64,000 nucleotides of DNA from the NCBI GenBank assembly GCA_964538565.1, contig CAZIGW010000055.1, forward strand, positions 1,344 through 65,343. The letters are read 5' to 3'. Positions 2,975 through 53,038 of the stretch are shown here, piece after piece (the stretch's first letter is position 1; the number at the start of each line of letters is the position of its first letter). A model generated the notes under the pieces. That model did no database searches. It saw only the letters and a program-made list of their open reading frames with translations, and was not told where the DNA came from. This DNA is from an uncultured Hyphomicrobiales bacterium. GTDB lineage: Bacteria; Pseudomonadota; Alphaproteobacteria; Rhizobiales; Xanthobacteraceae. The position numbers and the translations under genes were made by a program.

Positions 2975-3072
2975 CCGGACGTCCGTCGAAGGGTCCTGAT
3001 GCGGAGCTGCCTCGTGTTGCGCAGCCGGCGATATGATCGGCTTGCTCGGATCGGCCACGCGCGCTGCGTGCG

Positions 3073-3148
3073 CCCTCGCCCCGGCGGGGAGAGGGCCTGC
3101 GCCTCACCCGGCTCGCTGCGCTCGCCGACCTCTCCCAACGGGAGAGGT
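3073..3148. repeat. REP-like pair of GC-rich hairpins in the modA-modB spacer
   Basis: Hairpin 1, 3073-3095: CCCTCgCCCC-GGC-GGGGaGAGGG (one mismatch). Hairpin 2, 3128-3148: ACCTCTCCC-AAC-GGGAGAGGT (perfect 9 bp). The GGGAGAGG/CCTCTCCC motif type is common in Rhizobiales intergenic repeats (from memory; not searchable here). Confidence 0.5.
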
Positions 3149-3201
3149 GATTCCCCGCGGCTGCATCCCGTCGTCACAGCAGGCGACTGCGCCTCGGAAG
3201 G

Positions 3202-3909
3202 GTGACGGCGGCCGTGCTCGAACTCTCTCCGGACGAATGGACCGCTCTGCAGCTGTCGCTGCGGATCGCGCTCGTCGCCACCGCCAGCGCGCTGCCGTTC
3301 GGCATCGCCGTCGCGTGGCTGCTCGCGCGCAAGTCCTTCTGGGGCAAGTCGCTGCTCGACGGGCTCGTGCATCTGCCGCTCGTTCTGCCGCCCGTCGTCA
3401 CCGGCTATCTGCTGCTCGTCGTGTTCGGCCGCAAGGCGCCGGTCGGCGCGTTCCTCGCCGACACGTTCGGCATCGTGTTCTCGTTCCGCTGGACCGGAGC
3501 GGCGCTCGCCTGCGGCGTCATGGGTTTCCCGCTGCTGGTGCGCGCCGTACGGCTGTCGATCGAGGCGATCGACCGCAAGCTCGAAGGCGCGGCGGCGACG
3601 CTCGGCGCGAACCGCTTCTGGGTCTTCGCGACCGTCACGCTGCCGCTCGCGCTGCCCGGGATCATCGCCGGAATCGTGCTGTGCTTCGCCAAGGCGCTCG
3701 GCGAGTTCGGCGCCACCATCACGTTCGTGTCCAACATTCCGGGCGAGACGCAGACGCTGTCGGCCGCGATCTACACCTACACGCAGGTGCCGGCCGGCGA
3801 CGCGGCGGCGCTGCGCCTCGTGCTGGTGGCGATCGCGCTCTCGATGCTCGCGCTCGTCGCCTCCGAATGGCTGGCGCGGCGCGCCGGCGCGCGCATCCAT
3901 GGAGAATAG
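3202..3909 (+). CDS. modB: Molybdate ABC transporter permease
   Basis: ORF 3202..3909 (GTG start; an alternative GTG lies at 3214). N-terminus LSPDEWTALQLSLRIA resembles the ModB N-terminus. Permease EAA-type loop EGAAATLGANRFWVFATVTLPLALPG. Multi-TM. Confidence 0.9.
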   Translation: MTAAVLELSPDEWTALQLSLRIALVATASALPFGIAVAWLLARKSFWGKSLLDGLVHLPLVLPPVVTGYLLLVVFGRKAPVGAFLADTFGIVFSFRWTGAALACGVMGFPLLVRAVRLSIEAIDRKLEGAAATLGANRFWVFATVTLPLALPGIIAGIVLCFAKALGEFGATITFVSNIPGETQTLSAAIYTYTQVPAGDAAALRLVLVAIALSMLALVASEWLARRAGARIHGE

Positions 3910-3910
3910 G

Positions 3911-4597
3911 ATGCTCGAGGTCGACGTCGAAAAACGCCTCGGCGACTTCGCCCTGACCGCCAAGTTCGCGACGAAGGGCGGCGTCACCGCGCTGTTCGGC
4001 CCGTCGGGCGCCGGCAAGTCGACGATCGTCAATCTGGTCGCCGGCCTGCTCACGCCGGAGCGCGGCCGCATCGTGCTCGGCGACACGGTGCTGTTCGACG
4101 GAGCGGTGAAGATCAACGTGCCGCCGTACCGACGCCGCATCGGCTGCGTCTTCCAGGAGGGACGGCTGTTTCCCCACCTGTCGGTGCGCCGCAACCTCGA
4201 CTACGGCCGGTTCATGTGCGGACTTGCGCGCGACGAACAGGTCGAGCGTCACGTCATCGGGCTTCTCGACATCGGCCATCTCCTGGACCGCCGGCCGGGC
4301 CGGCTCTCGGGCGGCGAACGCCAGCGCGTCGCCATCGGGCGTGCGCTTCTGATGCGTCCGCGCCTCCTGCTGCTCGACGAGCCGCTCGCGTCGCTCGATG
4401 CGGCGCGCAAGCGCGAGATCCTGCCCTACCTGCTGCGGTTGCGCGACGAGGGCGGCGTGCCGATGATCTACGTCAGCCACGAGCCGGCAGAAGTGAAGCG
4501 CATCGCCACCGCGGTCGTCCGCGTCGAGGACGGGCGCGTCGTGGCGACCGGCGGCCTCGACCTGCTTCAAGCCGCGACCGCCGACATGCTGGCATAG
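3911..4597 (+). CDS. modC: Molybdate ABC transporter ATP-binding protein, short form without C-terminal TOBE/Mop domain
   Basis: Track ORF 3899..4597. The second ATG (3911) has GGAGAA 4 nt upstream and lies just after the modB stop (3907-3909). Walker A GPSGAGKST, signature LSGGERQRVAIGRAL, Walker B LLLLDEP. Confidence 0.88.
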   Translation: MLEVDVEKRLGDFALTAKFATKGGVTALFGPSGAGKSTIVNLVAGLLTPERGRIVLGDTVLFDGAVKINVPPYRRRIGCVFQEGRLFPHLSVRRNLDYGRFMCGLARDEQVERHVIGLLDIGHLLDRRPGRLSGGERQRVAIGRALLMRPRLLLLDEPLASLDAARKREILPYLLRLRDEGGVPMIYVSHEPAEVKRIATAVVRVEDGRVVATGGLDLLQAATADMLA

Positions 4598-7413: not shown

Positions 7414-8195
7414 CCGCCGCCGTGCCGCGGGCGCTGATCGCCGAGCATGTCGGGGCGGAACTGTCCGGCCGCACCGTGATCGAGGACGTATCGCTCACGC
7501 TGCGACGCGGCCGCCTCCTCGCCCTGCTCGGGCCGAACGGCGCGGGCAAGACCACGCTGGTGCGCGCGCTCGTCGGGCTCCTGCCGGCGCACGGCAGCAT
7601 CCGGCTCGACGACCAGCCGATGGCCAATCTCTCGCCACGTCAGCGCGCGCGCACGATCGCCTATCTGCCGCAGGGCCACACCTTCGCCTGGCCGATGCCG
7701 GTCGCCTCCGTCGTCGCGCTCGGACGCATCGCGCACGCCGATCCGTTCTCGCCGCCGAGCGCGGCCGACGCAGCGGCGGTGCGCAAGGCGCTGGCGTCGA
7801 CCGCGACGGAGGCGCTCGCGGAGCGGCCGGTGACCGCCCTGTCCGGCGGCGAGCGCGCCCGCGTCGCGCTCGCCCGTGCGCTCGCGGCCGAAGCACCCTT
7901 CCTGCTCGCCGACGAGCCGACCGTGTCGCTCGATCCGCGCCATCAGCTCGTGGTGATGGAACTGCTGCGGCAGGCGGCGCGCGGCGGCACGGCGGTGCTC
8001 GTCGTCGTGCACGATCTCGCGCTCGCGGCACGCTTCGCGGACTCCCTCGTGCTGATGGCGAACGGACGCATCGTCGCCGACGGCCCGCCGCAACGTACGC
8101 TGACGCCGGAGCGGATCGCGGCCGTGTTCGGCGTCGAGGCCTCGACGATCGCCACCGAGTTCGGACAGATGCCGGTCGTGCAGCGGCCGCTGTGA
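7410..8195 (+). CDS. ABC ATP-binding protein of the FecCD-type importer
   Basis: In-frame tail of track ORF 6357..8195. GTG 7410 overlaps the permease stop (GTGA). Walker [10 protein letters not shown], signature [15 protein letters not shown], Walker B FLLADEP. Confidence 0.88.
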
Positions 8196-8457
8196 ACGCG
8201 CGATCCGCGCTCGCGCCGAGTGCGGCGTGGCGGAGGCCGGAATCGCGGAGGCATCCGTTGCCGCCGAACGCCCCGCGACAGCAAGCCGCTGCTCGTCCGC
8301 GGCGCATCTGAAAAAGAACATTTTTTTGCAACCGGATTCGGCTTCCGGCGCTTGTCATCCGCCTTCGACTCCGCAACGCTGCCGGAGCCGAGGCGCCGTT
8401 CGGAACAACTTTCGGAATTTCCGGCTGGCTGATGTTCGATCAAATTGGGGAGAGCGT

Positions 8458-9567
8458 ATGCCAAACCGACACGGAAACCGAGACCAGCGCTCGAAGACGC
8501 AACACTGGATTGCGCGCATGATGGAACGCCCGGTGCGGTCCGCGATGAGCCGTCGCCGCCTCGCACGCGCGATCGCGTTTGCCGCCGTCGGCGCCATGCT
8601 TTTCGCGGTCTCCAGCGCGCACGCGCAGAGAATGCTGCTCAACGTGTCGTACGACCCGACGCGGGAACTCTATCGCGACCTCAATGCGCTGTTCGCGGCC
8701 GACTGGAACAAGCGGACGGGCGAGAGCATCACGATCCGCATGTCGCACGGAGGATCCGGCGCGCAGGCACGTGCGGTGATCGACGGCCTCGCCGCGTCCG
8801 TGGTGACGCTGGCGCTCGCCGCCGACATCGACGCGATCGCGCGCGCGACCGGAAAAATTCCCGCTGACTTGCAGAAGCGCCTGCCCAACAACTCCTCTCC
8901 CTACACCTCCACGATCGTGTTCCTCGTGCGCAAGGGAAACCCCAAGAACATCCGGGACTGGGACGACCTGGTCCGCCGCGACGTGCAGGTGATCACGCCC
9001 AATCCGAAGACGTCGGGCGGCGCACGCTGGAACTACCTTGCGGCCTGGGGCGCCGTGCTCGACAAGTCGCATGACGAAGCGAAAGCGAAAGCGTTCGTCT
9101 CCGCGCTCTACCGCAACGTCCCGGTGCTCGACACCGGCGCGCGCGGCGCCACCACCACGTTCGCCCAGCGCGGCATCGGCGACGTGTTGATCGCCTGGGA
9201 GAACGAGGCCCACCTCGCGCTCGCGCAGTTCGGCGCCGAGAAGTTCGACATCGTGGTTCCGACCATCTCCATCCGCGCCGAACCGCCGGTCGCGCTGGTC
9301 GACGGCAATGTCGATTCCGCGGGGACCCGGGCGCCGGCGCAGGCCTACCTCGAGTTCCTCTACACGCCGGACGCCCAGGCCGTCATGGCGAAGCATTTTT
9401 ACCGCCCCGTCAATCCCGAGCGCGCCGCCAAAGCCGACCTCGACCGCCTGCCGCAGATGAAGCTCTTCACCATCGACCAGATGTTCGGCGGCTGGGACAA
9501 CGTCCAGACGCGGCATTTCGGCGACGGCGGCATCTTCGACGACATCGTGCGCGCGAGTCGCCGTTGA
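8458..9567 (+). CDS. sbp: Sulfate/thiosulfate ABC transporter periplasmic binding protein
   Basis: Tail of ORF 8227..9567. ATG 8458 is preceded by GGGGAGAG; starts at 8518 or 8545 are also possible. Leader [25 protein letters not shown]. Motifs [44 protein letters not shown]. Confidence 0.9.
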
Positions 9568-39165: not shown

Positions 39166-39633
39166 ATGCGCCAAAAATTTTCCCTGAACGTCAACGGGCA
39201 GGTCCACTCGGTGGAAGCCGATCCCGACATGCCGTTGCTCTATGCGCTGCGTAACGACATCGGCCTCAACAATCCGCATTTCGGTTGCGGGCTCGCGCAG
39301 TGCGGCGCCTGCACGGTTCATCTCGACGGCCAGCCCACCCGTTCGTGCATCACACCGCTCTCGGCCGTCGGCGACGCCAAGATCGTCACGCTGGCCGGGC
39401 TCGGCACGGAGGAGCATCCGCATCCGCTGCAGAAGGCCTACGTGGAAGAGCAGGTGCCGCAGTGCGGCTACTGCATCAACGGCTGGATCATGACCGCCGC
39501 CGCGCTCCTGCGCGAGAAGAAGAAGCCGACCGACGCCGAGATCAAGGACGCCCTGTCGGGGTTGAAGTGCCGCTGCGGGACGCATGTCGGCATTCTGCGC
39601 GCGGTGCGCCGCGCCGCCGAGATGATGGGCTGA
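39166..39633 (+). CDS. (2Fe-2S)-binding small subunit of an IorAB/aldehyde-oxidase-type molybdoenzyme (pair 1)
   Basis: Tail of ORF 38701..39633 from ATG 39166 (GGGAGG SD). Cluster motifs [29 protein letters not shown]. Confidence 0.9.
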   Translation: MRQKFSLNVNGQVHSVEADPDMPLLYALRNDIGLNNPHFGCGLAQCGACTVHLDGQPTRSCITPLSAVGDAKIVTLAGLGTEEHPHPLQKAYVEEQVPQCGYCINGWIMTAAALLREKKKPTDAEIKDALSGLKCRCGTHVGILRAVRRAAEMMG

Positions 39634-39644
39634 GGGAGGCGATC

Positions 39645-41948
39645 ATGACCAAGATGGACAAAGCCACCGCGTTCTCCCGCCGCGCAATCCTCAGGTCGGG
39701 TGGCGCGCTCGTCGTTTCGATCGGCATGCCGGTCGGTTTCAACACGGTGCTCGACATCCAAGCGGCTTACGCGCAGGGAGCGGCCTTCGCCGTCGACACC
39801 AAGCCGCCGCTCGTGCCGAGCGAGCTTGCCTCCTACATCGCGATCAACGCCGACGGCTCCGTCTCCGCCTTCTTCGGCAAGATGGACATGGGCCAGGGCC
39901 TGTTCGTCGCCATCGGCCAGATCGTGGCCGAAGAACTCGACGTGCCGTTCCACAGCGTCAAGGTGTTCATGGGGGACACCGCGACGAGCGTGAACCAGGG
40001 CGGCGCCTCCGGCTCGACCGGCATCCAGGACGGCGGCAAGCAGATGCGCGTGGCCGCCGCCGAGGCGCGGCGCGTGCTCGTCGAAATGGCCGCCGCCAAG
40101 CTCGGGCTGCCGTCCGATCAGCTGACGGTGACCGACGGCATCGTGCACGCCAAGAGCGACCTGTCGAAGAAAGTCAGCTACGGCGAGCTGATCGGCGGCC
40201 GCTACTTCAACGTCCAGCTCGACTGGAACAAGAAGTACGGAAACCCGCTCTACGCGCCCGGCAAGGCGCAGCCGAAGCCGGCGAGCGCGCACAGGATCGT
40301 CGGCCAGCCGATCAAGCGCGAGGACATCGCCCCGAAGGTCTACGCGCGGCAGGACTTCGTCACCGACATCAGGCGGCCCGGCATGCTGCACGGGCGGATG
40401 ATCCGCCCGGCGGTCGCCGGATCGGTCCCGGTGAAGGTCGACGAAAGCTCGATCAAGGACATCGCGGGCGCGAAGGTCGTCTGGCAGAAGGGTTTCCTTG
40501 CCGTCGTCGCCGAGCACGAATGGGACGCGATCCAGGCGGCGCAGAAGCTGAAGGTCGAGTGGTCGAACGCCAGCCCGCCCTTCCCCGAGCAGGCCTCGCT
40601 CTACGACCACATCCGCAAGACCGCCGCGCGCACGCGCCAGGTCGAGAAGGAGAACGGCAACGTCGAGGAGGCGTTCAAGAACGCCGCCCGTGTGATCGAA
40701 GCCGAGTACGAGTGGCCGTTCCAGTCGCACGCCAGCATGGGCCCGGCCTGCGCCGTGGTGGAGATCAAGGACGGCCTCGTCACCTGCTGGACCGGCTCGC
40801 AGAAGTCGCACTTCGTGCGCGAGGGCCTCGCCGACACGCTCGGCATTCCGGTCGAGAAGATCCATGCGATCTGGGTGCCGGGCCCCGGCTCCTACGGCCG
40901 CAACGACGCCGACGACGCCGCCATGGACGCGGCGGTGCTGGCGCAGGCGACCGGCCGCCCGGTGCGCGTGCAGTACATGCGTGAACAGGGCACCGGCTGG
41001 GATCCCAAGGGCCCGGCCTCGATCCACCGCGCGCGCGTGGCGATCGACGCGTCCGGCAAGGTGGTGGCCTACGAGTTCCTCAGCAAGGGATTCTCGCGCG
41101 TCGACGTCAACACCAACGGCGGCCACGCCAGGGACACGCTCGCCGGGCACTTCCGCGACGTGGCGCTGAAGTCGGGCGACGGGTTCGGCGTGCCGGCGGA
41201 ATCCTACGTGTTCGACAACAAGCGGCTCGCCTGGGAAACGATCCCGCCGCTGCTCGACCGCGCCTCGCCGCTGCGCAGTTCGCATCTGCGCGACCCGGTC
41301 GGACCGCAGATCCACTTCGCGAGCGAGTCCTTCATGGACGAGGTCGCGGCGGCCCTCAACGTCGACCCGGTCGAATTCCGGCTGCGCCACATCAAGGACC
41401 CGCGCGACGTCGCCGTCATCAAGGCGGCGGTGGGGAAGTCGGGCTGGCAGACGCGGCCCTCGCCGCGCAAGGACCAGACCGGCGAGACCGTCTCCGGCCG
41501 CGGCATCGCCTACGCGCAGCGCAACGGGACGCGCGTCGCCATCGTGGCGGAGGTCGAGATCAACCGCCGCACCGGCAAGATCTGGGCGCGCAAGTTCACC
41601 GTCGCGCACGACTGCGGCCAGATCATCAACCCGGACGGTCTGACCAAGACGATCGAGGCCAACATCGTGCAGGGGACGAGCCGCACGCTGTGGGAGGAGG
41701 TGAAGTTCGACAGGAAGTCGGTCACCAGCGTCGACTGGATGACCTACCCGATCCTCGACATCACCGAGACCCCGGAGACGATCGACGTGACGCTGATCAA
41801 CCGGCCCGAGATCGCGCCTTCCGGCGCCGGCGAGCCGTCGACCCGTCCGGTCGCGGCGGCCATCGCCAACGCGATCTTCGACGCGACCGGCGTGCGCATC
41901 CGGCGCGTGCCGTTCTCGCCTGACCACGTGAAATCGGCCCTGTCCTGA
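39645..41948 (+). CDS. Molybdopterin-binding large subunit, IorB/aldehyde-oxidase family, Tat-exported (pair 1)
   Basis: Tail of ORF 39285..41948 from ATG 39645 (GGGAGG SD). Tat signal FSRRAILRSGGALVV. XDH-family a/b hammerhead and Mo-binding domains (GQGLFVAIGQIVAEEL, SGAGEPSTRPVAAAIANAI). Confidence 0.88.
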   Translation: MTKMDKATAFSRRAILRSGGALVVSIGMPVGFNTVLDIQAAYAQGAAFAVDTKPPLVPSELASYIAINADGSVSAFFGKMDMGQGLFVAIGQIVAEELDVPFHSVKVFMGDTATSVNQGGASGSTGIQDGGKQMRVAAAEARRVLVEMAAAKLGLPSDQLTVTDGIVHAKSDLSKKVSYGELIGGRYFNVQLDWNKKYGNPLYAPGKAQPKPASAHRIVGQPIKREDIAPKVYARQDFVTDIRRPGMLHGRMIRPAVAGSVPVKVDESSIKDIAGAKVVWQKGFLAVVAEHEWDAIQAAQKLKVEWSNASPPFPEQASLYDHIRKTAARTRQVEKENGNVEEAFKNAARVIEAEYEWPFQSHASMGPACAVVEIKDGLVTCWTGSQKSHFVREGLADTLGIPVEKIHAIWVPGPGSYGRNDADDAAMDAAVLAQATGRPVRVQYMREQGTGWDPKGPASIHRARVAIDASGKVVAYEFLSKGFSRVDVNTNGGHARDTLAGHFRDVALKSGDGFGVPAESYVFDNKRLAWETIPPLLDRASPLRSSHLRDPVGPQIHFASESFMDEVAAALNVDPVEFRLRHIKDPRDVAVIKAAVGKSGWQTRPSPRKDQTGETVSGRGIAYAQRNGTRVAIVAEVEINRRTGKIWARKFTVAHDCGQIINPDGLTKTIEANIVQGTSRTLWEEVKFDRKSVTSVDWMTYPILDITETPETIDVTLINRPEIAPSGAGEPSTRPVAAAIANAIFDATGVRIRRVPFSPDHVKSALS

Positions 41949-43268: not shown

Positions 43269-45608
43269 ATGGCTGCGGCGACCGCCACGAACTCCGATCG
43301 CGCCTTGCGCCTCGAGGATCCGCCGCTGCTGCGCGGGGAAGGCCGTTTCGTCGACGACGTGCGGCGACCCAACCAGGCGTTTGCCGCGTTCGTCCGCTCG
43401 CCGCATGCCGCCGGCCGCATCCGCAAGATCGACACCGCGGACGCGTCGCGCGCGCCCGGCGTGGTCGCGGTTCTGACCGGGGCCGACATGATAGCAGCGG
43501 GCGCCGGCAGCATCTCGCGCCACCCGCCGATGGTCGGCCGCGGCGGCGCCAGGCTCGTGATGCCGTTCCGGCCCGCGCTCGCCGACGAACGGGTGGCGCA
43601 CGTCGGCCAGGCGGTTGCGCTCGTGATCGCCGATTCCGCCGGCCAGGCGCAGGACGCCGCCGAACGGGTCGCGGTCGACTACGAACCGCTGCCCGCCGTC
43701 ACGGACGTCCGCGCGGCCCTCGAAAAGGATGCGCCGCAGGTCTGGAGCGAAGCACCCGGCAACGTGGCGCTCGACTGGCCGGGCCCCGTGGCGGACGACG
43801 GCGCGAACGCGCGCGCGGTCGAGGAGGCATTCGCCGCGGCCGCGCACATCGCCCGGGTCTCGCTCGTCAACCAGCGGCTCGTCGTCGCCACCATGGAGCC
43901 GCGCGGCGCGACCGCCGAGTACGACGCAGCCGGTGATACCTATACGCTGCGCACCTGCTCGCAGAGCGCCGCGGTGGTGCGCGACCAGCTTGTCTCGATC
44001 ATGAACTGGCCGCGCGAGCGCCTGCGGGTCATCAGCGAGGATGTGGGCGGTGCCTTCGGGATGAAGACCCCCGTATACCCGGAGTACCCGGCGCTGCTCG
44101 TCGCCGCCAAGCACACCCGCCGGCCGGTGCACTGGATGTCGACCCGCTCCGAGGCGTTTCTGAGCGACAACCAGGGACGCGACGGAATTCTCGAGGCGGA
44201 GCTGGCGCTCGACGAAAAGGGAAAATTCCTCGCGCTGCGCGTACGCGAGCTTGCGAGCCTCGGCGCCTTCGTGACGCCGGCCGGCGCGCATCTCGCGACC
44301 ACCAATTTCGCGCGCTGCTTTCCCGGCATGTACCGCATTCCCCGCATCGACGTCGGGGTGAAGTGCGTGTTCACCAACACGGTGCCGACCGGACCCTATC
44401 GCGGCGCCGGACGGCCGGAAGCGAACTATCTGCTCGAGCGGCTGGTCGACGAGGCCGCGCGCGTCAGCGGCATCGACCGCGTGAGCCTGCGGCGGCGCAA
44501 CCTCATTCCGAAATCGGCGATGCCGTATCGCACGCCGGTCGGCACCACATACGACAGCGGCGATTTCCCGGCCGTGTTCGACAGGGCGCTAGCAGCGAGC
44601 GGCTACAAGGAATTTTCCCAACGCCGGCGCGAGGCCAGAAAGCGCGGAAAGTTTCGCGGCATCGGCATCTGCTGTTTCGTCGAGCACTCGGGCGGCCTGC
44701 CGACCGAGGGCGCCGCGATGACGTTTCCGGGCGATGGCCGGATCGAGGTGGGCATCGGCGTGCAGGCGACCGGCCAGGGCCATGCGTCGGTGTTCGGCCG
44801 CCTCGCCGCCGCGCGGCTCGGCGTGCCGGCCGATCGCGTCACGGTGCGGCAGGGCGACACGCAGCTCGGCGTGGCGAGCTCGGCTTCGGTCGCGTCCCGC
44901 TCGGCGATGGTGGTCGGCACCGCGATCGTGCGCGTCGCAGAGGCGGTGGTCGAGAAGGGACGCAAGGTTGCCGCGCAACTGCTCGAAGCGGCCGATTCCG
45001 ACATCACCTACCGGGACGGCATGTTCGCGGTCGCGGGCACCGACCGGCGGCTGTCGCTGTTCGAGGTCGCGGCACGGGCGAAAGACCTTCATGCACGCGG
45101 CGAGATCGCCGAGACGCTCGACACCAATCTCACGGCCGACACGCCTCAGACGTTTCCCAACGGCTGCCACGTCGCCGAGGTGGAGGTCGATCCGGAGACC
45201 GGCGTCGTCTGCGTGGTCACCTACACGGCGGTCGACGATTGCGGCAACGTGCTCGACCACATGATCGTCGAGGGACAGGTGCAGGGCGGCATCGCCCAGG
45301 GGCTCGGCCAGGCGCTGTTCGAGAATGTCGTGTACGACGGCGACAGCGGTCAACTCGTTACCGGGTCGTTCATGGACTACGCCATGCCGCGCGCGAGCGA
45401 CATGCCGGCGATCGTCGGCTCGGAGCTGTCCGTCGCCGCCACGACCAATCCGCTCGGCGTGAAGGGCGTCGGCGAGGCGGGCACGATCGGTTCGCTCGCC
45501 GCCATCATGAACGCCATCGCGGATGCGCTGCCGGAAGGAGCCGGCGCCAGGCTCGACATGCCGGCGACGCCCCAGCGGGTGTGGGACGCTTGCCGGTCGG
45601 CGTCATAG
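43269..45608 (+). CDS. Xanthine dehydrogenase/CoxL-family molybdopterin-binding large subunit (form II CoxL-like loop), no adjacent FAD subunit
   Basis: ORF 43269..45608. N-terminus LRLEDPPLLRGEGRFVDDV. Active-site loop GPYRGAGRPEA (about 44391-44414). C-terminus GVKGVGEAGTIGSLAAIMNAIADAL. Confidence 0.88.
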   Translation: MAAATATNSDRALRLEDPPLLRGEGRFVDDVRRPNQAFAAFVRSPHAAGRIRKIDTADASRAPGVVAVLTGADMIAAGAGSISRHPPMVGRGGARLVMPFRPALADERVAHVGQAVALVIADSAGQAQDAAERVAVDYEPLPAVTDVRAALEKDAPQVWSEAPGNVALDWPGPVADDGANARAVEEAFAAAAHIARVSLVNQRLVVATMEPRGATAEYDAAGDTYTLRTCSQSAAVVRDQLVSIMNWPRERLRVISEDVGGAFGMKTPVYPEYPALLVAAKHTRRPVHWMSTRSEAFLSDNQGRDGILEAELALDEKGKFLALRVRELASLGAFVTPAGAHLATTNFARCFPGMYRIPRIDVGVKCVFTNTVPTGPYRGAGRPEANYLLERLVDEAARVSGIDRVSLRRRNLIPKSAMPYRTPVGTTYDSGDFPAVFDRALAASGYKEFSQRRREARKRGKFRGIGICCFVEHSGGLPTEGAAMTFPGDGRIEVGIGVQATGQGHASVFGRLAAARLGVPADRVTVRQGDTQLGVASSASVASRSAMVVGTAIVRVAEAVVEKGRKVAAQLLEAADSDITYRDGMFAVAGTDRRLSLFEVAARAKDLHARGEIAETLDTNLTADTPQTFPNGCHVAEVEVDPETGVVCVVTYTAVDDCGNVLDHMIVEGQVQGGIAQGLGQALFENVVYDGDSGQLVTGSFMDYAMPRASDMPAIVGSELSVAATTNPLGVKGVGEAGTIGSLAAIMNAIADALPEGAGARLDMPATPQRVWDACRSAS

Positions 45609-45853: not shown

Positions 45854-46306
45854 ATGATTCGTCTTACCATCAACGGAACCGCGCATGAGGTCGACGTCGA
45901 GCCCGACACTCCGCTGCTGTGGGTCTTGCGCGAACAGGTCGGCCTGACTGGCACCAAGTACGGCTGCGGCATCGCCCAGTGCGGCGCCTGCACGGTCCAC
46001 ATCGACGGCGTGGCGACCCGCTCCTGCGGTCTGCAGGTGGGCGACGCGGTCGGAAAGCAGATCACCACGATCGAAGGTCTCGCTTCCAACGGCAGCATGC
46101 ACCCGGTGCAGAAGGCCTGGCTCGATCTCGACGTGCCCCAGTGCGGCTATTGCCAGAGCGGCATGATCATGGCGGTCGCGGCCCTCCTGAAGGAGAAGCC
46201 CAAGCCCACCGATGCCGATATCGACGAGGCGATCACCAACATCTGCCGATGCGGCACGTACCAGCAGGTTCGCGCCGCGATCCACGCTGCTGCCACGAAC
46301 GCGTAA
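45854..46306 (+). CDS. (2Fe-2S)-binding small subunit of an IorAB-type molybdoenzyme (pair 2)
   Basis: ORF 45854..46306 (GAGGAGGAAGGG SD). Cluster motifs [28 protein letters not shown]. Confidence 0.92.
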
Positions 46307-46320
46307 AGGGGGAGGCAGCC

Positions 46321-48495
46321 ATGACCATCATGCCGAAGATCGATCGCCGTTCGTTCCTCGTTGGCAGCGCCGCCGCGGGCGGCGGTCTCGCCCTCGGATT
46401 GCAGCTCCCGCTCGGTCCGGACACGGTTCGCGCGGCCGGCAGCGCGCCCGAGGTCAACGCCTGGGTGGTGATCCGGCCGGACGACACCGTCGTCATCCGC
46501 ATCGCCCGCTCGGAAATGGGCCAGGGCACGCTGACCGGCCTGGCGCAGCTCGTCGCCGAAGAGCTCGACTGCGACTGGTCGAAGGTCACGACCGAATATC
46601 CGACGCCCGGCCAGAACGTGGCGCGCAAGCGCGTATGGGGCGACTTCGCCACCGGCGGCAGCCGCGGCATTCGCGCCTCGGAGGATTACGTGCGCAAGGG
46701 CGGCGCGGCCGCCCGCATGATGCTGATCCAGGCGGCGGCGAACGAATGGAAAGTGTCGCCCGCCGAGTGCAGCGCCGCGAACAGCGTCATCACCCACAAG
46801 GCGAGCGGACGCTCGACGACCTACGGGAAGGTCGCGGACGCCGCCGCCAAGCTCGAGCCGCCGAAGGACATCAAGCTCAAGGATCCGAAGGACTGGAAGA
46901 TCGCCGGCAAGCCGCTGAAGCGGCTCGACACCCTTCCCAAGCTGAGCGGCAAGCAGATCTACGGCATCGATCTCAAGTTGCCCGGCATGCTCAACGCCGC
47001 CATCAAGGCCTGCCCGGTGTTCGGCGGCACGGTGAAGAGCTTCGACTCCGCCAAGGTCGAAGGCATGAAGGGCGTGAAGAAGGTCATGCAGGTCGGCAAT
47101 GACGCGGTCGCCGTCGTCGCCGACACCTGGTGGCACGCCAAGACGGCGCTCGACGCGCTCCCGATCGTCTGGGACGAGGGTCCGAACGCCAAGGTCTCAA
47201 GCGCCTCGATCGCCGAATTCCTGAAGGAGGGACTGACGGCCGAGCAGGCGTTCGTCGGCAACCGCAACGGTGACGTGAAGGCGGCGCTCTCCGGCGCGGC
47301 GAAGACGGTGGAAGCCGTGTACGGCTATCCCTACCAGAACCACGCCACGATGGAGCCGATGAACGCGACCGCGCTCTACACGCCGGATCGTTGCGAGGTG
47401 TGGTGCCCGACGCAGAACGGCGAAGCGGCGTTCGCGGCCGTGCTCGAAGCCTCGGGCCTGCCGGCGTCGAAGTGCGACGTGCACAAGCTCCTGTGCGGCG
47501 GCGGCTTCGGCCGGCGCGGGCGCAGCGACTACGTCACCCAGGCCGTCCTCATCGCCAAGCAGATGCCGGGCACGCCGATCAAGCTCATCTGGTCGCGCGA
47601 AGAGGACATGACCCACTGCACCTATCATCCGATCACGCAGGCCAAGCTGGTCGGCGGGCTGGATGCGGCGGGCAACCTTCAGACCCTCCACATCCGCATA
47701 TCGGGACAGTCGATCCTCACCTCGCTGTTCCCCTCGCGGCTGCAGAACGGCATGGATCCGGCGACGTTCCAAGGCCTCGCCCCCAAGGGCGAAGCCGCCA
47801 TCGGCTACACGGTGCCGAACCTCCTGGTGGAGCACGCGATGCGCAATCCGCACGTGCCGCCGGGCTTCTGGCGCGGCGTCAACGTCAACCAGAACGCCAT
47901 CTATCTCGAGTGCTTCATGGACGAGCTGGCGCATGCGGCCGGACAGGATCCGCTCGAGTTCCGGCGCAAGCTGATGGCCAACCACCCGTTGCATCTCGGC
48001 GTGCTCAACGCGGTCGCCGAGAAGGCCGGATGGGGCAAGCCGGCGCCGGCCGGCGTCTTCCGGGGCATCGCCCAGCACATGGGGTACGGCAGCTACGTCG
48101 CCGCCGTCGCCGAAGTGTCGGTCAGCGACAAGGGCGAGTTGAAGATCCACCGCATCGTCGCCGCGACCAATCCCGGCTACGCCGTCAATCCGGCGCAGAT
48201 CGAGCGGCAGGTCGCGGGTTCGTTCGTCTACGGGCTCTCCGCCATGCTGTACGGCGAATGCACCGTCAAGGACGGCGCCATCGAGCAGACGAACTTCGAC
48301 ACTTACAACGTGATGCGCATCGCCGAGATGCCGAAGGTCGAGGTGATCGTCATGCCGACCGGCGGCTTCTGGGGTGGCGTCGGCGAGCCGACGATCTGCG
48401 TCGCGGCGCCGGCGGTGCTCAACGCGATCTTTGCGGCGACCGGCAAGCGCATCCGCACGATCCCGCTCAAGAACCACGACCTGCGCAAGGCGTGA
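46321..48495 (+). CDS. Molybdopterin-binding large subunit, IorB family, Tat-exported (pair 2)
   Basis: Tail of ORF 45919..48495 from ATG 46321 (GGGGGAGG SD). Tat signal IDRRSFLVGSAAAGGGLALG. Motifs SEMGQGTLTGLAQLVAEEL and GGVGEPTICVAAPAVLNAI. Confidence 0.9.
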   Translation: MTIMPKIDRRSFLVGSAAAGGGLALGLQLPLGPDTVRAAGSAPEVNAWVVIRPDDTVVIRIARSEMGQGTLTGLAQLVAEELDCDWSKVTTEYPTPGQNVARKRVWGDFATGGSRGIRASEDYVRKGGAAARMMLIQAAANEWKVSPAECSAANSVITHKASGRSTTYGKVADAAAKLEPPKDIKLKDPKDWKIAGKPLKRLDTLPKLSGKQIYGIDLKLPGMLNAAIKACPVFGGTVKSFDSAKVEGMKGVKKVMQVGNDAVAVVADTWWHAKTALDALPIVWDEGPNAKVSSASIAEFLKEGLTAEQAFVGNRNGDVKAALSGAAKTVEAVYGYPYQNHATMEPMNATALYTPDRCEVWCPTQNGEAAFAAVLEASGLPASKCDVHKLLCGGGFGRRGRSDYVTQAVLIAKQMPGTPIKLIWSREEDMTHCTYHPITQAKLVGGLDAAGNLQTLHIRISGQSILTSLFPSRLQNGMDPATFQGLAPKGEAAIGYTVPNLLVEHAMRNPHVPPGFWRGVNVNQNAIYLECFMDELAHAAGQDPLEFRRKLMANHPLHLGVLNAVAEKAGWGKPAPAGVFRGIAQHMGYGSYVAAVAEVSVSDKGELKIHRIVAATNPGYAVNPAQIERQVAGSFVYGLSAMLYGECTVKDGAIEQTNFDTYNVMRIAEMPKVEVIVMPTGGFWGGVGEPTICVAAPAVLNAIFAATGKRIRTIPLKNHDLRKA

Positions 48496-48500
48496 GGCGA

Positions 48501-48528
48501 CGGGCGGCGGCCCCGCAGCCGCCGCCCG
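48501..48528 (+). other. GC-rich intercistronic stem-loop between iorB2 and the cytochrome c gene
   Basis: CGGGCGGCGGC (48501-48511) pairs with GCCGCCGCCCG (48518-48528). No T-tail follows. Confidence 0.5.
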
Positions 48529-48539
48529 CACGTTTGCCG

Positions 48540-48839
48540 ATGAGGGCAGCATTCCTCTGCATCGGCGCGGCAGCGGCCGTCATCTCGACTGCCCCTGCAT
48601 TCGCCGGCCAAGCCGGGACGCCGTTCGGCGTCGCCGCCTGCACGGGCTGTCATCCTGCCCACGCCGGCGCGCCGAACGCGATTCCCTCGTTGGCGGGTCG
48701 CAAGGCGACCGAGATCGAGGATGCGATGCGAGGGTTTCGCGCCGGCGAGCGGCCCGCGACGGTGATGGACCGCATCGCCAAGGGATTTTCCGACGACGAG
48801 ATCCGGGCCATTGCCGCCTGGTACGCCGCCCGGAAATGA
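48540..48839 (+). CDS. Monohaem class I cytochrome c (FccA/SoxE-like partner of the flavoprotein, or electron acceptor of IorAB pair 2)
   Basis: Tail of ORF 47391..48839 from ATG 48540. Signal peptide MRAAFLCIGAAAAVISTAPAFA. Haem motif CTGCH. Confidence 0.8.
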   Translation: MRAAFLCIGAAAAVISTAPAFAGQAGTPFGVAACTGCHPAHAGAPNAIPSLAGRKATEIEDAMRGFRAGERPATVMDRIAKGFSDDEIRAIAAWYAARK

Positions 48840-48858
48840 CGAAGGACGCCGCGCCCGC

Positions 48859-50133
48859 ATGAGCGGACCCAACATCGACCGGCGCGCGCTTCTGGCTTCC
48901 GCGGCCGCCGCGGGATGCACGGCGGTTTTCGCCCCGGCGATCGCGCAGGCGGCGCCGCGCGTCGTCGTCATCGGCGGCGGCTTCGCGGGCGCGAGTTGCG
49001 CGCGCGCGCTCAAGCAGGCCGACGCACGCATCGCGGTGACGCTGATCGAGGCAAACGCGACCTTCACGGCCTGCCCGTTCAGCAACAGCGTGATCGCCGG
49101 CCTGCGCGACCTCAGGCAGCAGCAGTTCACCTACGATCGCCTCGCCGCCGGGGGCATCGCGGTGAGGATCGCGACCGCCGCCGCGGTCGATCCGCACGCC
49201 CGCACGGTCATGCTCGCCGACCGCACGCGGATCTCCTACGACCGTCTGGTGGTGGCGCCCGGCATCGGCTTTCGCTGGGGCGCGCTCCAGGGCTACGACG
49301 AGGTCGCCGCGCAGACCATGCCGCACGCCTGGATGGGCGGTGACCAGATCGACCTCTTGCGGCGGCAGCTGGAGGCCATGCGCGACGGCGGCGTGGTCGC
49401 GATCGCGGCGCCGGTCAATCCGTCGCGGTGTCCACCCGGCGCCTACGAACGCGCCAGCCTGATCGCGTACTACCTCAAGACGCGCAAGCCGCGCTCGAAG
49501 CTGTTCGTGCTCGACGCCAAGGACACCTTCTCGATGCAGAAGCTGTTCCAGAGCGCCTGGAAGGAACTCTATGCCGGCCTGATCGAGTGGGTGCCGCTCT
49601 CGTCCGGCGGCAATCTCACCTCGGTCGAGGTCGCGACCAGGACGCTCGTGACCGAATTCGACAGCTACAAGGTCGACGTCGCCAACGTCATTCCGCCGCA
49701 GAAGGCCGGTCCGCTCGCCGAGCGCGCCGGCGTCGCGGACCGCACGGGCTGGTGCCCGGTCGACCCGGCGACATTCGAATCGAAGCTGCAGAAGAACATT
49801 CACGTGATCGGCGATGCGGCCATCGCCGGCGCCATGCCGAAGTCGGCATTCGCCGCCAGCACGCAAGGCAAGCTGTGCGCGGCCGCCATCGTCAGGCTGC
49901 TTCGCAACGAGGCCCCGCCGGCGCCGGTGCTGGTGAGCACGTGCTACAGCCTGGTAGCGCCCGACGACGCGATCTCGATCGCCGGGGTTTACCGGCCGGT
50001 CGAGGGCCAATATCTGGAGGTCGAGAACTCGGGCGGTGTGAGCCCCGCCGATGCGCCGCGCGCGTTTCGCGCCCGGGAAGCGAAATTCGCCGATGCATGG
50101 TTCAAGACGGTGACCAATGAGATCTTCGGGTGA
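48859..50133 (+). CDS. soxF: Flavocytochrome c sulfide dehydrogenase flavoprotein subunit (FccB/SoxF)
   Basis: Tail of ORF 48811..50133 from ATG 48859. Tat signal IDRRALLASAAAAG. FAD motif RVVVIGGGFAGASCA. FccB-like motifs CPFSN and RCPPGAYERA. Confidence 0.88.
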   Translation: MSGPNIDRRALLASAAAAGCTAVFAPAIAQAAPRVVVIGGGFAGASCARALKQADARIAVTLIEANATFTACPFSNSVIAGLRDLRQQQFTYDRLAAGGIAVRIATAAAVDPHARTVMLADRTRISYDRLVVAPGIGFRWGALQGYDEVAAQTMPHAWMGGDQIDLLRRQLEAMRDGGVVAIAAPVNPSRCPPGAYERASLIAYYLKTRKPRSKLFVLDAKDTFSMQKLFQSAWKELYAGLIEWVPLSSGGNLTSVEVATRTLVTEFDSYKVDVANVIPPQKAGPLAERAGVADRTGWCPVDPATFESKLQKNIHVIGDAAIAGAMPKSAFAASTQGKLCAAAIVRLLRNEAPPAPVLVSTCYSLVAPDDAISIAGVYRPVEGQYLEVENSGGVSPADAPRAFRAREAKFADAWFKTVTNEIFG

Positions 50134-50626
50134 AAAGGCGGGTGCGCGACTCGCGGTTGCCGTCCTCACCGCGGCGTGGCTCGTGGGCCTCTCGGCGTGG
50201 CCGGCGCGCGCCGAGGACGCGACGCTGCGGCCCTATGTGGTGGTGGGCGACGCCATCCCGGCCTCGCTGACCGGCACGCCGGGCAATCCGGCGCGCGGGC
50301 GCGCGATCGTGGCCAATCGCCAAGTCGGGCTCTGCCTCCTCTGCCATGCCGGTCCGTTTCCCGAGCAGAAGTTCCAGGGCACCATCGGGCCCGATCTGGA
50401 CGGGGCCGGCGCGCGCTGGAGCGAGGGCCAGTTGCGGTTGCGCATCGTCGACGCGAGCCGCATCAATCCCGCCACCATCATGCCGCCTTACTATCGCATC
50501 GATGGACTGGCGCGCGTCGCCCCGGCGTATCGCGGCAAGCCGGTGCTGAGCGCGGAGCAGATCGAGGACGTGGTGGCTTATCTCGAGACCCTGCGCGGGA
50601 ACGCCAACGAGACGAGGACGCCATGA
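50117..50626 (+). CDS. soxX: SoxX monohaem cytochrome c
   Basis: ORF 50117..50626, overlapping the soxF 3' end by 17 nt. Signal peptide present. Motif GNPARGRAIVANRQVGLCLLCH, haem motif CLLCH. Confidence 0.88.
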   Translation: MRSSGEKAGARLAVAVLTAAWLVGLSAWPARAEDATLRPYVVVGDAIPASLTGTPGNPARGRAIVANRQVGLCLLCHAGPFPEQKFQGTIGPDLDGAGARWSEGQLRLRIVDASRINPATIMPPYYRIDGLARVAPAYRGKPVLSAEQIEDVVAYLETLRGNANETRTP

Positions 50627-51108
50627 CGGCATCATTTCGCCATCCGTCACGCCGCGACGTGCTCCGCGCCACCGGTACGATGGCGGCGGGCGGCATCGTC
50701 TCCGTGCTTCTTGTGCGCGGCGCCCGGGCCACGCCTGCGTCGATGCAGATCGCCATCCACAAGGTCGTCGGCGAGGCGAGCATCAAGCCGGGCAGGGTGA
50801 AGATCGACATTCCGCCCGTGGTCGAGAACGGCAACACCGTGCCGATGACGGTCGCGGTGGAGAGCCCGATGACGGCGTCCGACCACGTGAAGGCCATCCA
50901 TGTGTTCAACGAGAAAAATCCGCAGCCCAAAGTCATCAGCGTGCGTCTTGGCCCGCGCGCCGGGCGCGCCAGGATCTCGACCCGCATCAGGCTCGCCGAC
51001 TCGCAGAAGGTGATCGCCATCGCCGAGTTCAGCGACGGCTCGTTCTGGTCGGATTCCGCCGACGTGATCGTGACGCTCGCGGCCTGCGTCGAGGATCTGA
51101 CGCCATGA
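50623..51108 (+). CDS. soxY: SoxY-related sulfur carrier protein with an AACVE (not GGCGG) C-terminal arm
   Basis: Tail of ORF 50176..51108 from ATG 50623 (ATGA overlap with soxX). Tat signal SRRDVLRATG. SoxY core ENGNTVPMTVAVESPMTASDHVKAIHVFNEKNP. C-terminus VIVTLAACVEDLTP; the Cys codon is 51085-51087. Confidence 0.85.
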   Translation: MTASFRHPSRRDVLRATGTMAAGGIVSVLLVRGARATPASMQIAIHKVVGEASIKPGRVKIDIPPVVENGNTVPMTVAVESPMTASDHVKAIHVFNEKNPQPKVISVRLGPRAGRARISTRIRLADSQKVIAIAEFSDGSFWSDSADVIVTLAACVEDLTP

Positions 51109-51425
51109 CCCGCGCGCTCATCCACGTCCCCCCCAAGGCCAAACGCGGCGAGATCATCGAGGTCAAGACCCTGATCTCGCACGTCATGGAGACCGGTTTC
51201 CGCCACAGCTCGATCGGCGTGCGGATTCCGCGCGACATCATCACGACGCTCGTGTGCACCTACAACGGCGAAGAGATCTTTCGCGCTGAGCTCTCGCCGG
51301 CGATCGCCGCCAATCCGTTCGTCACCTTCTTCACGGTCGCGACCGAGAGCGGAACGATCGCGTTCAACTGGACCGGCGACAACGGATTCTCCGCCAACGC
51401 CTCGGCGAACATCACGGTCGAATGA
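51105..51425 (+). CDS. soxZ: SoxZ
   Basis: ORF 51105..51425, ATGA overlap with soxY. Motifs KRGEIIEVKTLISHVMETG and ANPFVTFFTVATESGTIAFNW are typical of SoxZ. Confidence 0.88.
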   Translation: MTRALIHVPPKAKRGEIIEVKTLISHVMETGFRHSSIGVRIPRDIITTLVCTYNGEEIFRAELSPAIAANPFVTFFTVATESGTIAFNWTGDNGFSANASANITVE

Positions 51426-52228
51426 CGCTCACCCGCAAGCCTCCGAGATCTTCGGCGTGGATGCTGGCGCTCGTGCTTGCGGGCTGCGGGCTCGTGCCCC
51501 CTGCGCGCTCCGGCGAGATCGCGCCGGCCGATCGGCGCTCGGACTACGAGTTCATGAGCGCCGAGACGCGCGCCATGCAGGACGACGACACCGCCAACCC
51601 GGGCATGCTGTGGGTGCTCGACGGCGAAGCCCTGTGGAACCGCAAGATCGGAGCGGCCGATCGCTCGTGCGCCGACTGCCACGGCGATGCGAAGACGAGC
51701 ATGAAGGGCGTGGCCGCGCGCTATCCGGCGTTCGACTCGACCCGCGACAAGCCGGTCGACATCGAGGAGCGCATCAACATCTGCCGCAGCAACCACCAGA
51801 AAGCGACGCCGCTGCCGTTCGAGAGCCGCGAGCTCCTGGCGCTGACCGCCTATGTGGCGCTGCAGTCGCGCGGCATGCCGATTGCGCCTCCCGCCGACGA
51901 GCGCCTGCGGCCCTACAAGGAGGCCGGGCGGGAGATCTTTCGCCGCCGCCAGGGGCAGCTCAACATCTCCTGCAGCCAGTGCCACGACGACAACTGGGGC
52001 AGGAAGCTCGCCGGCAACATCGTGCCGCAGGCACACCCGACCGGCTATCCGATCTATCGCCTCGAATGGCAAAGCCTCGGCTCGCTGCAGCGACGTCTGC
52101 GCAATTGTCTCATCGGCATGCGCGCCGAAGCCTATCCGTACGGCTCGCCCGAATACCTGGCGCTGGAAGTCTTCCTGATGGCGCGGGCGCGCGGCATGAA
52201 GATGGAGACGCCGGCGGTGCGACCTTGA
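51422..52228 (+). CDS. soxA: SoxA dihaem cytochrome c
   Basis: ORF 51422..52228, ATGA overlap with soxZ. Haem motifs CADCH and CSQCH. Conserved distal Cys in LQRRLRNC. Confidence 0.9.
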   Translation: MTLTRKPPRSSAWMLALVLAGCGLVPPARSGEIAPADRRSDYEFMSAETRAMQDDDTANPGMLWVLDGEALWNRKIGAADRSCADCHGDAKTSMKGVAARYPAFDSTRDKPVDIEERINICRSNHQKATPLPFESRELLALTAYVALQSRGMPIAPPADERLRPYKEAGREIFRRRQGQLNISCSQCHDDNWGRKLAGNIVPQAHPTGYPIYRLEWQSLGSLQRRLRNCLIGMRAEAYPYGSPEYLALEVFLMARARGMKMETPAVRP

Positions 52229-52234
52229 GGCCGC

Positions 52235-53038
52235 TCACAGGCCGGGCGGCACGCGCGCAGGCCCGCCCGTCGGTTTCGTCGCCTCGACCGTGAGTTCGAA
52301 CACCATGGTGGTCTCGAGCCGGTCGCCGAACCAGGCCGAGACGGCAGCCGAGCGGGCTTCGACATAGCGGGGCTCGCCGTCGTCGAGGACCATCGGCAGA
52401 TCGTGGCCGGGCACGACGATGCTGCCGGGTCGGCGCCGCCACAGCTCCCAGATCCGCTCGATCGATCGGCGGCTGACCGCCGCGTCATAGGTCATGTCGG
52501 CCTCGCGCGAGACGAGCTCGGTACGGTTCTTGGCCGCATCGCCGGTGAAGATCACGTCGCGATCGCCGCCCGAAAGAACGAACACGAGGTGGCCCGGCGT
52601 GTGTCCGGGTGCATCGGCCGCCGTGATCCCGGGGATCACCTCGTCTGCGCCGCGCACGCGGCGCACCTGCCTCGAGCGGTCGAGTTCGTGCACGTAGAGT
52701 TCCGGGACCGACGTGAGGCCGAAAGGCTCCTTCACGGCCCAGGCCAGCTCCTCCGCGCCCACGTGCACCGTCGCGTTGGCGAACGCCAGCCAGTTCACGC
52801 AATGATCGTAGTGGGCATGCGTAAGCAACACGTCGGTGACATCGGCCGGCTCGAGGCCGCGCGCGGCGAGCCGCTCGACGAGCAGCCGGCGATAGCCGAA
52901 CGAGCCGACGTCGACGAGCGCGACACGCCCGTTGCCGCGCAGCAGCGCCACGGTGCTCCAGCCGAGCGGCCCGTGGCACACGGACTTGCCCGGGAACCCC
53001 TGCACCACGAGGTCGATCTCGAAGCCGCCGACGTTCAT
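52235..53038 (-). CDS. MBL-fold metallo-hydrolase (AHL-lactonase-like)
   Basis: ORF 52235..53038(-). HxHxDH motif LLTHAHYDHC and downstream GHTPGH. No signal peptide. Its stop lies 6 nt from the soxA stop (convergent). Confidence 0.82.
   Translation of the reverse strand: MNVGGFEIDLVVQGFPGKSVCHGPLGWSTVALLRGNGRVALVDVGSFGYRRLLVERLAARGLEPADVTDVLLTHAHYDHCVNWLAFANATVHVGAEELAWAVKEPFGLTSVPELYVHELDRSRQVRRVRGADEVIPGITAADAPGHTPGHLVFVLSGGDRDVIFTGDAAKNRTELVSREADMTYDAAVSRRSIERIWELWRRRPGSIVVPGHDLPMVLDDGEPRYVEARSAAVSAWFGDRLETTMVFELTVEATKPTGGPARVPPGL

Follow-up and report, generated by a model that had tools for sequence, protein, structure and literature searches.

Judged from gene neighbourhoods, SoxY-like carrier proteins with an Ala-Ala-Cys (AAC) C-terminal arm are tied to a single orthogroup of xanthine-oxidase-family molybdenum (Mo) enzymes and uncoupled from SoxB, an association that is new in this analysis. 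The protein considered here, soxY', is encoded in a stretch of 64,000 nucleotides (hereafter the window) on contig CAZIGW010000055.1 of an uncultured Hyphomicrobiales bacterium (GCA_964538565.1; Xanthobacteraceae). The family is already named and its type of cluster has been noted before, the window protein being a further member. The favoured reading, to which we lean with some reserve, is that soxY' is a functional periplasmic sulfur-carrier subunit, made with its own SoxZ and SoxXA from one operon together with FccB and the Mo enzyme IorAB.

The soxY' gene, for a SoxY-related AACIE-arm carrier protein, can be found at 50623..51108 on the + strand (ATG at 50623, stop at 51106-51108) and codes for 161 aa. 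The N-terminus, MTASFRHPSRRDVLRATG..., includes PSRRDVLRATG, the core is ENGNTVPMTVAVESPMTASDHVKAIHVFNEKNP, and the C-terminal end reads ..SADVIVTLAACVEDLTP (also given as ..VTLAACVEDLTP and ..VIVTLAACVEDLTP), with AACVEDLTP as the last residues. A twin-arginine translocation (Tat) signal peptide spans residues 1-36 (SRRDVL to ARA, followed by TP; 50623..50730, +), as indicated by TIGR01409 (16.8 bits against a cut-off of 16.7) and by the twin arginine R10-R11, both residues of which are invariant among 28 homologues; the cleavage site is probably the one given by the AxA motif. The C-terminal arm, A153-A-C155-V-E157-D-L-T-P161 (51079..51105, +), has AACVE at residues 153-157 in place of GGCGG, and six residues (V, E, D, L, T and P) follow Cys155, whose codon is the tgc at 51085-51087. 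Against the NCBIfam model TIGR04487, 'SoxY-related AACIE arm protein' (SoxY_para_1), soxY' scores 222.9 bits (cut-off 172), its residues 9-157 covering profile positions 1-146 of 146, and against TIGR04488, SoxY_true_GGCGG, it scores 109.8 bits, below the cut-off of 125. Since it passes the former and fails the latter, soxY' is a new member of an already named family. The match to Pfam SoxY (PF13501) reaches 114 bits, and TIGR04557 is matched at 65.2 bits (cut-off 140) over its Y half only, soxZ being a separate gene. Together with the ATGA overlap that couples soxY' to soxZ, these results bear out the first-pass annotation of this stretch, which had described a Tat-exported, SoxY-like protein with an AACVE arm, translationally coupled to soxZ, and whose label 'SoxY-related AACIE arm protein' proved right in the hidden Markov model comparison. 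The term 'AACIE' was not found in the literature searched.

HMMER places VIVTLAAC of soxY' opposite VKVTIGGC in 2ox5_Y, a SoxY structure from Paracoccus pantotrophus, and Cys155 is therefore the positional equivalent of the carrier Cys, as had been proposed from the sequence. The best solved-structure matches are P. pantotrophus SoxY (2ox5/2oxg) and Thermus SoxY (4uwq). An AlphaFold2 model built with 28 homologues shows a confident beta-sandwich (predicted local distance difference test, pLDDT, of 79-94 for the block), for which the top Foldseek match is P. pantotrophus SoxY 2oxg_Y with a template-modelling score of 0.79 on the target. The tail that follows the last strand (141-151) drops to a pLDDT of about 55, which in the model is consistent with a mobile arm.

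Homologues were searched over 5.8 billion proteins (E <= 1e-5), with matches in at least 8000 clusters at 90% identity. All of the 120 best homologues listed, 65-77% identical to soxY', end in [AG]AC[VILT]E plus 0-5 variable residues, for which reason a chance motif or a sequencing error is rejected, and A154, C155 and E157 are invariant in the 28-sequence alignment, so that the Cys is conserved among orthologues. Neither of the two other reading frames around 51040-51130 encodes GGCGG, and no frameshift that would restore the canonical arm can thus be invoked. A frameshift, a pseudogene or a decaying soxY duplicate, which would account for the unusual C-terminus and for nothing else, is ruled out for practical purposes: the arm is common to hundreds of species, the Tat signal and the coupling are intact, and TIGR04487 is passed. 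soxY' is a genuine, conserved SoxY relative belonging to the named, uncharacterised TIGR04487 family.

At the level of 50%-identity cluster representatives, a search yielded 2001 members of the SoxY superfamily, among which, in a distance tree, the AAC proteins form a radiation apart from the GGC proteins. Three arm subtypes can be distinguished, namely AAC[ILVT]E.., AAC[IL]DG[GST] and AACV[VI][LG]-COOH, and TIGR04487 is the best model for all of them. The first carboxylate after the Cys, whether an Asp or Glu side chain or the chain terminus, is located at Cys+2 in 431 of 437 AAC arms, and the same position is taken in 11 of 12 GGC arms by the terminal carboxylate of GGCGG; it may hence be a recognition element retained for the shared partner SoxXA. 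With every Gly of GGCGG changed, the altered arm appears from its conservation to be under strong selection, and losing all four glycines would probably give a bulkier, less flexible arm.

Gene neighbourhoods were compared at about 170 loci of soil and marine bacteria, comprising 80 loci of species-representative genomes, six Pfam-labelled contigs with distant members, 80 metagenome loci obtained with a marine arm as seed, and annotated plasmid regions, adjacency being counted only over loci with enough flanking DNA to be informative. iorB adjoins soxY' in 96 of 98 such loci and iorA in 92 of 93, and the Sox genes are equally constant (soxZ, 151/151; soxX, 141/143; soxA, 124/125), with fccB present in 111 of 117. 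The iorAB link is common to all three arm subtypes (AACxE, AACxDGG and marine AACVVL). One iorB miss, in an uncultured alphaproteobacterial metagenome-assembled genome (L058), corresponds to a group II intron inserted in the operon, whose reverse transcriptase/maturase gene (7904-9418, -) sits between soxX and soxY'. The block can be found in Xanthobacteraceae, Bradyrhizobium, Microvirga, Ancylobacter, Azospirillum, Methylobacterium, Neorhizobium and Roseomonas, and further in Luteimonas (Gammaproteobacteria), Betaproteobacteria and Rokubacteria/Methylomirabilota. Relatives in Ancylobacter have an AACIE arm and the same block, and in several Bradyrhizobium species an AACIE-arm protein so named by NCBI (arm AACTEE) lies inside it. 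In Roseomonas, fccAB follows soxA, the order being changed and the content the same. The AACxDGG clade has neither fccB nor the small cytochrome gene of the block, and the invariant core therefore consists of iorAB and soxX-soxY'-soxZ-soxA.

When all neighbouring open reading frames (ORFs) were clustered, no further family exceeded about one quarter of the loci, other families with the size of SoxB or SoxC reached at most 14 of 166 loci, and no SoxH-like hydrolase was conserved among the neighbour families. No SoxB was detected beside an AAC-arm soxY' by tblastn with the Methylosinus OB3b SoxB over the window and 176 loci (2.34 Mb), in which the only matches came from two canonical clusters fetched incidentally, and the six Pfam-labelled loci have no Metallophos or Oxidored_molyb neighbour. 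The earlier proposition that a different arm implies different partners accordingly holds in part, as far as genomic context goes: SoxB is absent, about 98% of the informative loci have a Mo enzyme next to soxY', and SoxXA and SoxZ are kept.

In the window, the block is made of iorA-iorB-cytochrome c-fccB-soxX-soxY'-soxZ-soxA, arranged head to tail over 45854-52228 with gaps of at most 44 nt and four overlaps, among them an ATGA at each of the soxX/soxY', soxY'/soxZ and soxZ/soxA junctions. Regarding the Sox genes, soxX (50117..50626, +), for the monohaem cytochrome c subunit of SoxXA, scores 83.2 bits on TIGR04485 (cut-off 61) and has the conserved motif C.LCHSGPFP; soxZ (51105..51425, +) scores 82.6 bits on TIGR04490 (cut-off 76); and soxA (51422..52228, +), for the dihaem cytochrome c subunit, scores 232.6 bits on TIGR04484 (cut-off 110), both CxxCH motifs and the Cys of GSLQRRLR.C being kept in 59 orthologues. 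The fccB/soxF-like gene (48859..50133, +), for the flavoprotein of a flavocytochrome c sulfide dehydrogenase, has a Tat signal (MSGPNIDRRALL) and matches Pfam FCSD_central (147 bits) and FCSD-flav_bind (89.5 bits). It is preceded by a gene read from the sequence as a small monohaem cytochrome c of 99 aa with a CTGCH motif (48540..48839, +), which has no NCBIfam match and is presumably an FccA/SoxE-like partner of the flavoprotein; the same slot holds an ORF of 95-118 aa in Luteimonas, Ancylobacter and Azospirillum.

The Mo enzyme is encoded by the first two genes. iorA (45854..46306, +) codes for a small subunit with two [2Fe-2S] clusters, of which the NCBIfam matches are xanthine dehydrogenase and aldehyde dehydrogenase iron-sulfur subunits, all under the equivalog cut-offs, and whose Cys motifs, including NICRCGT, are kept in 63 orthologues. 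iorB (46321..48495, +) codes for the Mo-cofactor-binding large subunit, with a Tat signal (MTIMPKIDRRSFLVGS..), and among solved structures is most closely related to that of a membrane-bound aldehyde dehydrogenase, 8gy3_C (E 1e-75, full length). It retains GGGFGRR and GVGEP, the latter with the catalytic Glu and present in 62 of 68 orthologues. In at least 90% of the module IorB orthologues a Cys can be found in each of the motifs AEELDCDW and RCEVW, at positions held by Ala and Met in 8gy3_C. As far as can be judged from haem, flavin-site and Fe-S motifs, which are conserved across SoxA, SoxX, FccB, IorA and IorB, the partners of soxY' keep intact catalytic signatures.

An aldehyde dehydrogenase as the nearest solved relative of IorB leaves room for the proposal that the carrier Cys and the Mo dehydrogenase act on a non-sulfur or organosulfur substrate, e.g., an aldehyde thiohemiacetal, or that SoxXA serves IorAB as its cytochrome partner. 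There would be a parallel in TIGR04557, a distinct SoxYZ-like family whose curated label is quinoprotein-dehydrogenase-associated (PMC12997753) and whose carriers are linked to periplasmic pyrroloquinoline quinone dehydrogenases; moreover, the operon of the D-arm clade has no c-type cytochromes other than SoxX and SoxA, which agrees with such a relay. However, SoxXA, the known chemistry of which is S-S bond formation, is co-inherited almost throughout, FccB is a sulfide dehydrogenase and no SoxH-like hydrolase is conserved with the module, so that a role of this kind is judged improbable.

The surroundings of the block offer no further candidate components. Elsewhere in the 64-kb window, the ORFs that were scanned include no SoxB or SoxCD lookalike. 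Three xanthine-oxidase-family Mo-enzyme loci can be found in the window, namely a gene for an 887-aa IorB-like protein (39285-41948), one for a CoxL/glyceraldehyde-dehydrogenase-like large subunit (43269-45608), and the module iorAB (45854-48495), and a ModABC-like ABC transporter (SBP_bac_11, permease and ATPase) is encoded at 2186-4597. The upstream CoxL-like gene was rejected as a part of the system, being present in 9 of 80 loci at varying positions, as were the downstream MBL-fold, SDR and PrpD-like genes (0-5 of 80 loci). The MBL-fold, lactonase-like gene (52235-53038, -), which converges on the end of soxA, was considered as a SoxH-like hydrolase and discarded (0/80 loci).

A second sox cluster without SoxB and SoxCD has been described in Starkeya novella, where soxX2Y2Z2A2F2 (Snov_1982-1977) can be found with a xanthine-oxidase-family Mo enzyme (Snov_1975/1976) (PMC3797975, 2013), and by its gene content the window block belongs to this type. 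In that bacterium the SoxAX and SoxYZ proteins of the second cluster were undetected, and the transcripts were very low on glucose, methanol and thiosulfate (PMC3797975). In Bradyrhizobium diazoefficiens, of two soxY homologues, soxY1 of sox locus I is alone essential for thiosulfate oxidation (PMC5748708). In strain USDA110, soxY2 is probably of the AAC type, as other Bradyrhizobium species carry it. The first-pass annotation had overlooked this cluster and these genetic data, as well as iorAB as a candidate partner in the same operon. A complete sox cluster is present as well in both organisms (PMC3797975; PMC5748708), and the SoxX, SoxZ and SoxA of the window block all lie above the cut-offs of the 'true' Sox equivalogs. 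These two facts speak for another possibility, in which soxY' would be an isoform of the thiosulfate carrier, redundant or used under particular conditions, that is loaded by its own SoxXA and processed in trans by canonical SoxB and SoxCD encoded elsewhere. To this, one can object that every Gly of GGCGG is altered under strong selection, that soxY1 alone is essential in B. diazoefficiens and the S. novella cluster is nearly silent on thiosulfate, and that SoxB is never adjacent and iorAB almost always is. Little credence is therefore given to an isoform acting in trans.

Returning to the favoured reading, SoxXA would load sulfur onto Cys155, and the adduct would be handled with the Mo enzyme and not by SoxB/SoxCD, a scheme regarded as plausible and still short of convincing. 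In such a scheme, SoxXA would oxidatively couple a sulfur anion to Cys155, and Glu157, as the Cys+2 carboxylate, would mimic the terminal carboxylate of GGCGG, leaving the arm recognisable to SoxXA. Given that, in two model organisms, the cluster either stays silent on thiosulfate or can be dispensed with for its oxidation, thiosulfate is unlikely as a growth substrate, and sulfide-derived sulfane would be the likelier growth source of the adduct; the flavocytochrome c, where present, could feed in sulfide-derived sulfur or electrons. The bulkier Ala-Ala/Val arm would then hand the adduct to the Mo enzyme, or swap sulfur with it, instead of engaging SoxB/SoxCD, and electrons would exit through the [2Fe-2S] clusters to c-type cytochromes. 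The more specific proposition that AAC-arm SoxYZ, once loaded by its own SoxXA, passes on its covalently attached sulfur or organosulfur cargo to the xanthine-oxidase-family enzyme is viewed as possible and rather doubtful.

Several points weigh against this scheme. We know of no xanthine-oxidase-family enzyme that acts on a protein-bound sulfur substrate, and the module comes without a hydrolase for product release. The other iorB miss, a marine locus (L115, 4878-7906; arm AACVL), is a genuine exception and the sole informative locus without iorAB; two amidohydrolase genes stand there in place of the upstream iorAB. Finally, IorB orthologues 62-71% identical to that of the module can be found on plasmids without any nearby sox gene, and in a neighbour-joining tree the stand-alone and module IorBs interleave; with iorAB thus occurring sox-free, the Mo enzyme is not reserved for the carrier and must possess some activity of its own.

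With regard to these relatives, the module IorB belongs to a tight orthogroup, with at least 62% identity inside and at most 43% to the next relatives, and 36 plasmid records have IorB matches at 60-80% identity, the next best being at most 43%. The plasmids with stand-alone iorAB come from Methylosinus trichosporium OB3b, Sinorhizobium meliloti, Agrobacterium and Rhizobium (L167, L168, L169, L174). There, iorAB is located beside a c-type cytochrome gene and sometimes beside XdhC/MocA-type cofactor maturation genes; some copies are also near an arylsulfatase and a multihaem cytochrome, or near an OmpR/EnvZ-type two-component system. The latter was considered as a clue to the signal and set aside, the matches being generic and the adjacency not conserved. 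On the M. trichosporium OB3b plasmid pOB3b1 (L175, 7254-11407), an IS6 transposase gene lies directly upstream of a soxY-like match that has no annotated coding sequence; next come soxZ, soxB and two genes of the DsrE family, with the stand-alone iorAB about 95 kb away.

In the loci sampled, the linkage is asymmetric, the AAC-arm Sox set being nearly always found with the Mo enzyme and the Mo enzyme also alone. Enzymes of the xanthine-oxidase family need a labile sulfido ligand, which is normally installed in the cytoplasm, and IorAB is Tat-exported. Taken together, the asymmetry, the ligand and the export suggest a different hypothesis, in which the Mo enzyme is served by the Sox set and not the reverse: SoxXA, with FccAB, would make a persulfide on Cys155, which would supply or repair IorAB sulfur (e.g., a cyanolysable Mo=S ligand), or activate or protect IorAB. 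However, xdhC- and mocA-like genes adjoin the module in the marine AACV[VI][LG] clade (L121, L122, L123, L126, L131, L132, L102, L105, L108 and L116), which indicates a cofactor matured normally, in the cytoplasm; a Sox set acting as a substitute for XdhC-type maturation was rejected on the same ground. A set of four to six genes with two cytochrome complexes among its products would also be a heavy cost for repair, related IorAB and aldehyde dehydrogenase enzymes work without this set, and there is no precedent. An accessory role is consequently considered unlikely, although it ranks as the main rival, ahead of the isoform acting in trans and of the non-sulfur or electron-relay role.

The consequences for annotation concern many genomes. 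Members of the family occur in hundreds of species-level genomes, from soil Xanthobacteraceae, Bradyrhizobium and Rokubacteria to marine metagenomes, and in public records they are routinely named 'sulfur-oxidizing protein SoxY' or 'thiosulfate oxidation carrier protein SoxY'. With such mislabelling, gene surveys that count soxY, soxZ, soxA or soxX can over-call thiosulfate oxidation. In one survey, SoxY sequences without 'GGC' were deleted (PMC11237559), and in another only soxB-containing clusters were retained (PMC13500833). Moreover, the curated models TIGR04487 and TIGR04488 leave a gap between them: proteins with a D-type or GACVETG arm score 155-163 bits on the former (<172) and about 95-103 on the latter (<125). 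Two proteins, from a Roseomonas marmotae plasmid (L172, 10509-10949) and P0391, are below the cut-off of both models, yet named thiosulfate carrier SoxY.

As to function, the near-obligate link to one Mo-enzyme orthogroup means that the role of the second sox cluster can be addressed in a defined experiment on six to eight proteins. Should the Mo enzyme process carrier-bound sulfur, this would be a new enzymatic route in the sulfur cycle and a periplasmic sulfur pathway independent of SoxB and SoxCD in bacteria from soils and the sea. Within the xanthine-oxidase family, this would moreover be the first example of an enzyme acting on, or serviced by, a sulfur substrate bound to a carrier protein.

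Among known systems, the second cluster of S. novella is like the window block in its published gene content, with SoxX, SoxY, SoxZ, SoxA, a flavocytochrome c and a two-subunit xanthine-oxidase-family Mo enzyme. It differs in gene order, the window having iorAB and fccAB first, and neither the arm motif nor the breadth of the association was remarked upon in its description (PMC3797975). SoxCD is likewise a periplasmic molybdoenzyme with a c-type cytochrome, encoded with SoxYZ and SoxXA, and might by analogy be seen as a conceivable functional counterpart of the module IorAB; in contrast, SoxC belongs to the sulfite-oxidase family and has no [2Fe-2S] subunit, and SoxCD works on GGCGG arms and needs SoxB. 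The aldehyde dehydrogenase/IorAB-type Mo hydroxylases (8gy3) share with the module the two-subunit design with Mo and two [2Fe-2S] clusters and a cytochrome c acceptor, whereas the module IorB falls in its own tight orthogroup. The TIGR04557 carrier (PP_2677, ped cluster) also adjoins a periplasmic cytochrome c-linked dehydrogenase and not SoxB; unlike soxY', however, it is a fused SoxYZ-like protein without SoxXA, its partners being pyrroloquinoline quinone enzymes, a rhodanese and a SoxH-like hydrolase (PMC12997753). The resemblance to canonical SoxY (P. pantotrophus 2ox5/2oxg; TIGR04488) extends to the beta-sandwich, Tat export, pairing with SoxZ, co-encoded SoxXA, and a flexible C-terminal arm with a Cys at the aligned position and a carboxylate two residues on. 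The two proteins share about 34% identity, and soxY' differs in its arm, AACVE plus four residues instead of GGCGG-COOH, and in its genomic company, which is never soxB and is characteristically a xanthine-oxidase-family Mo enzyme.

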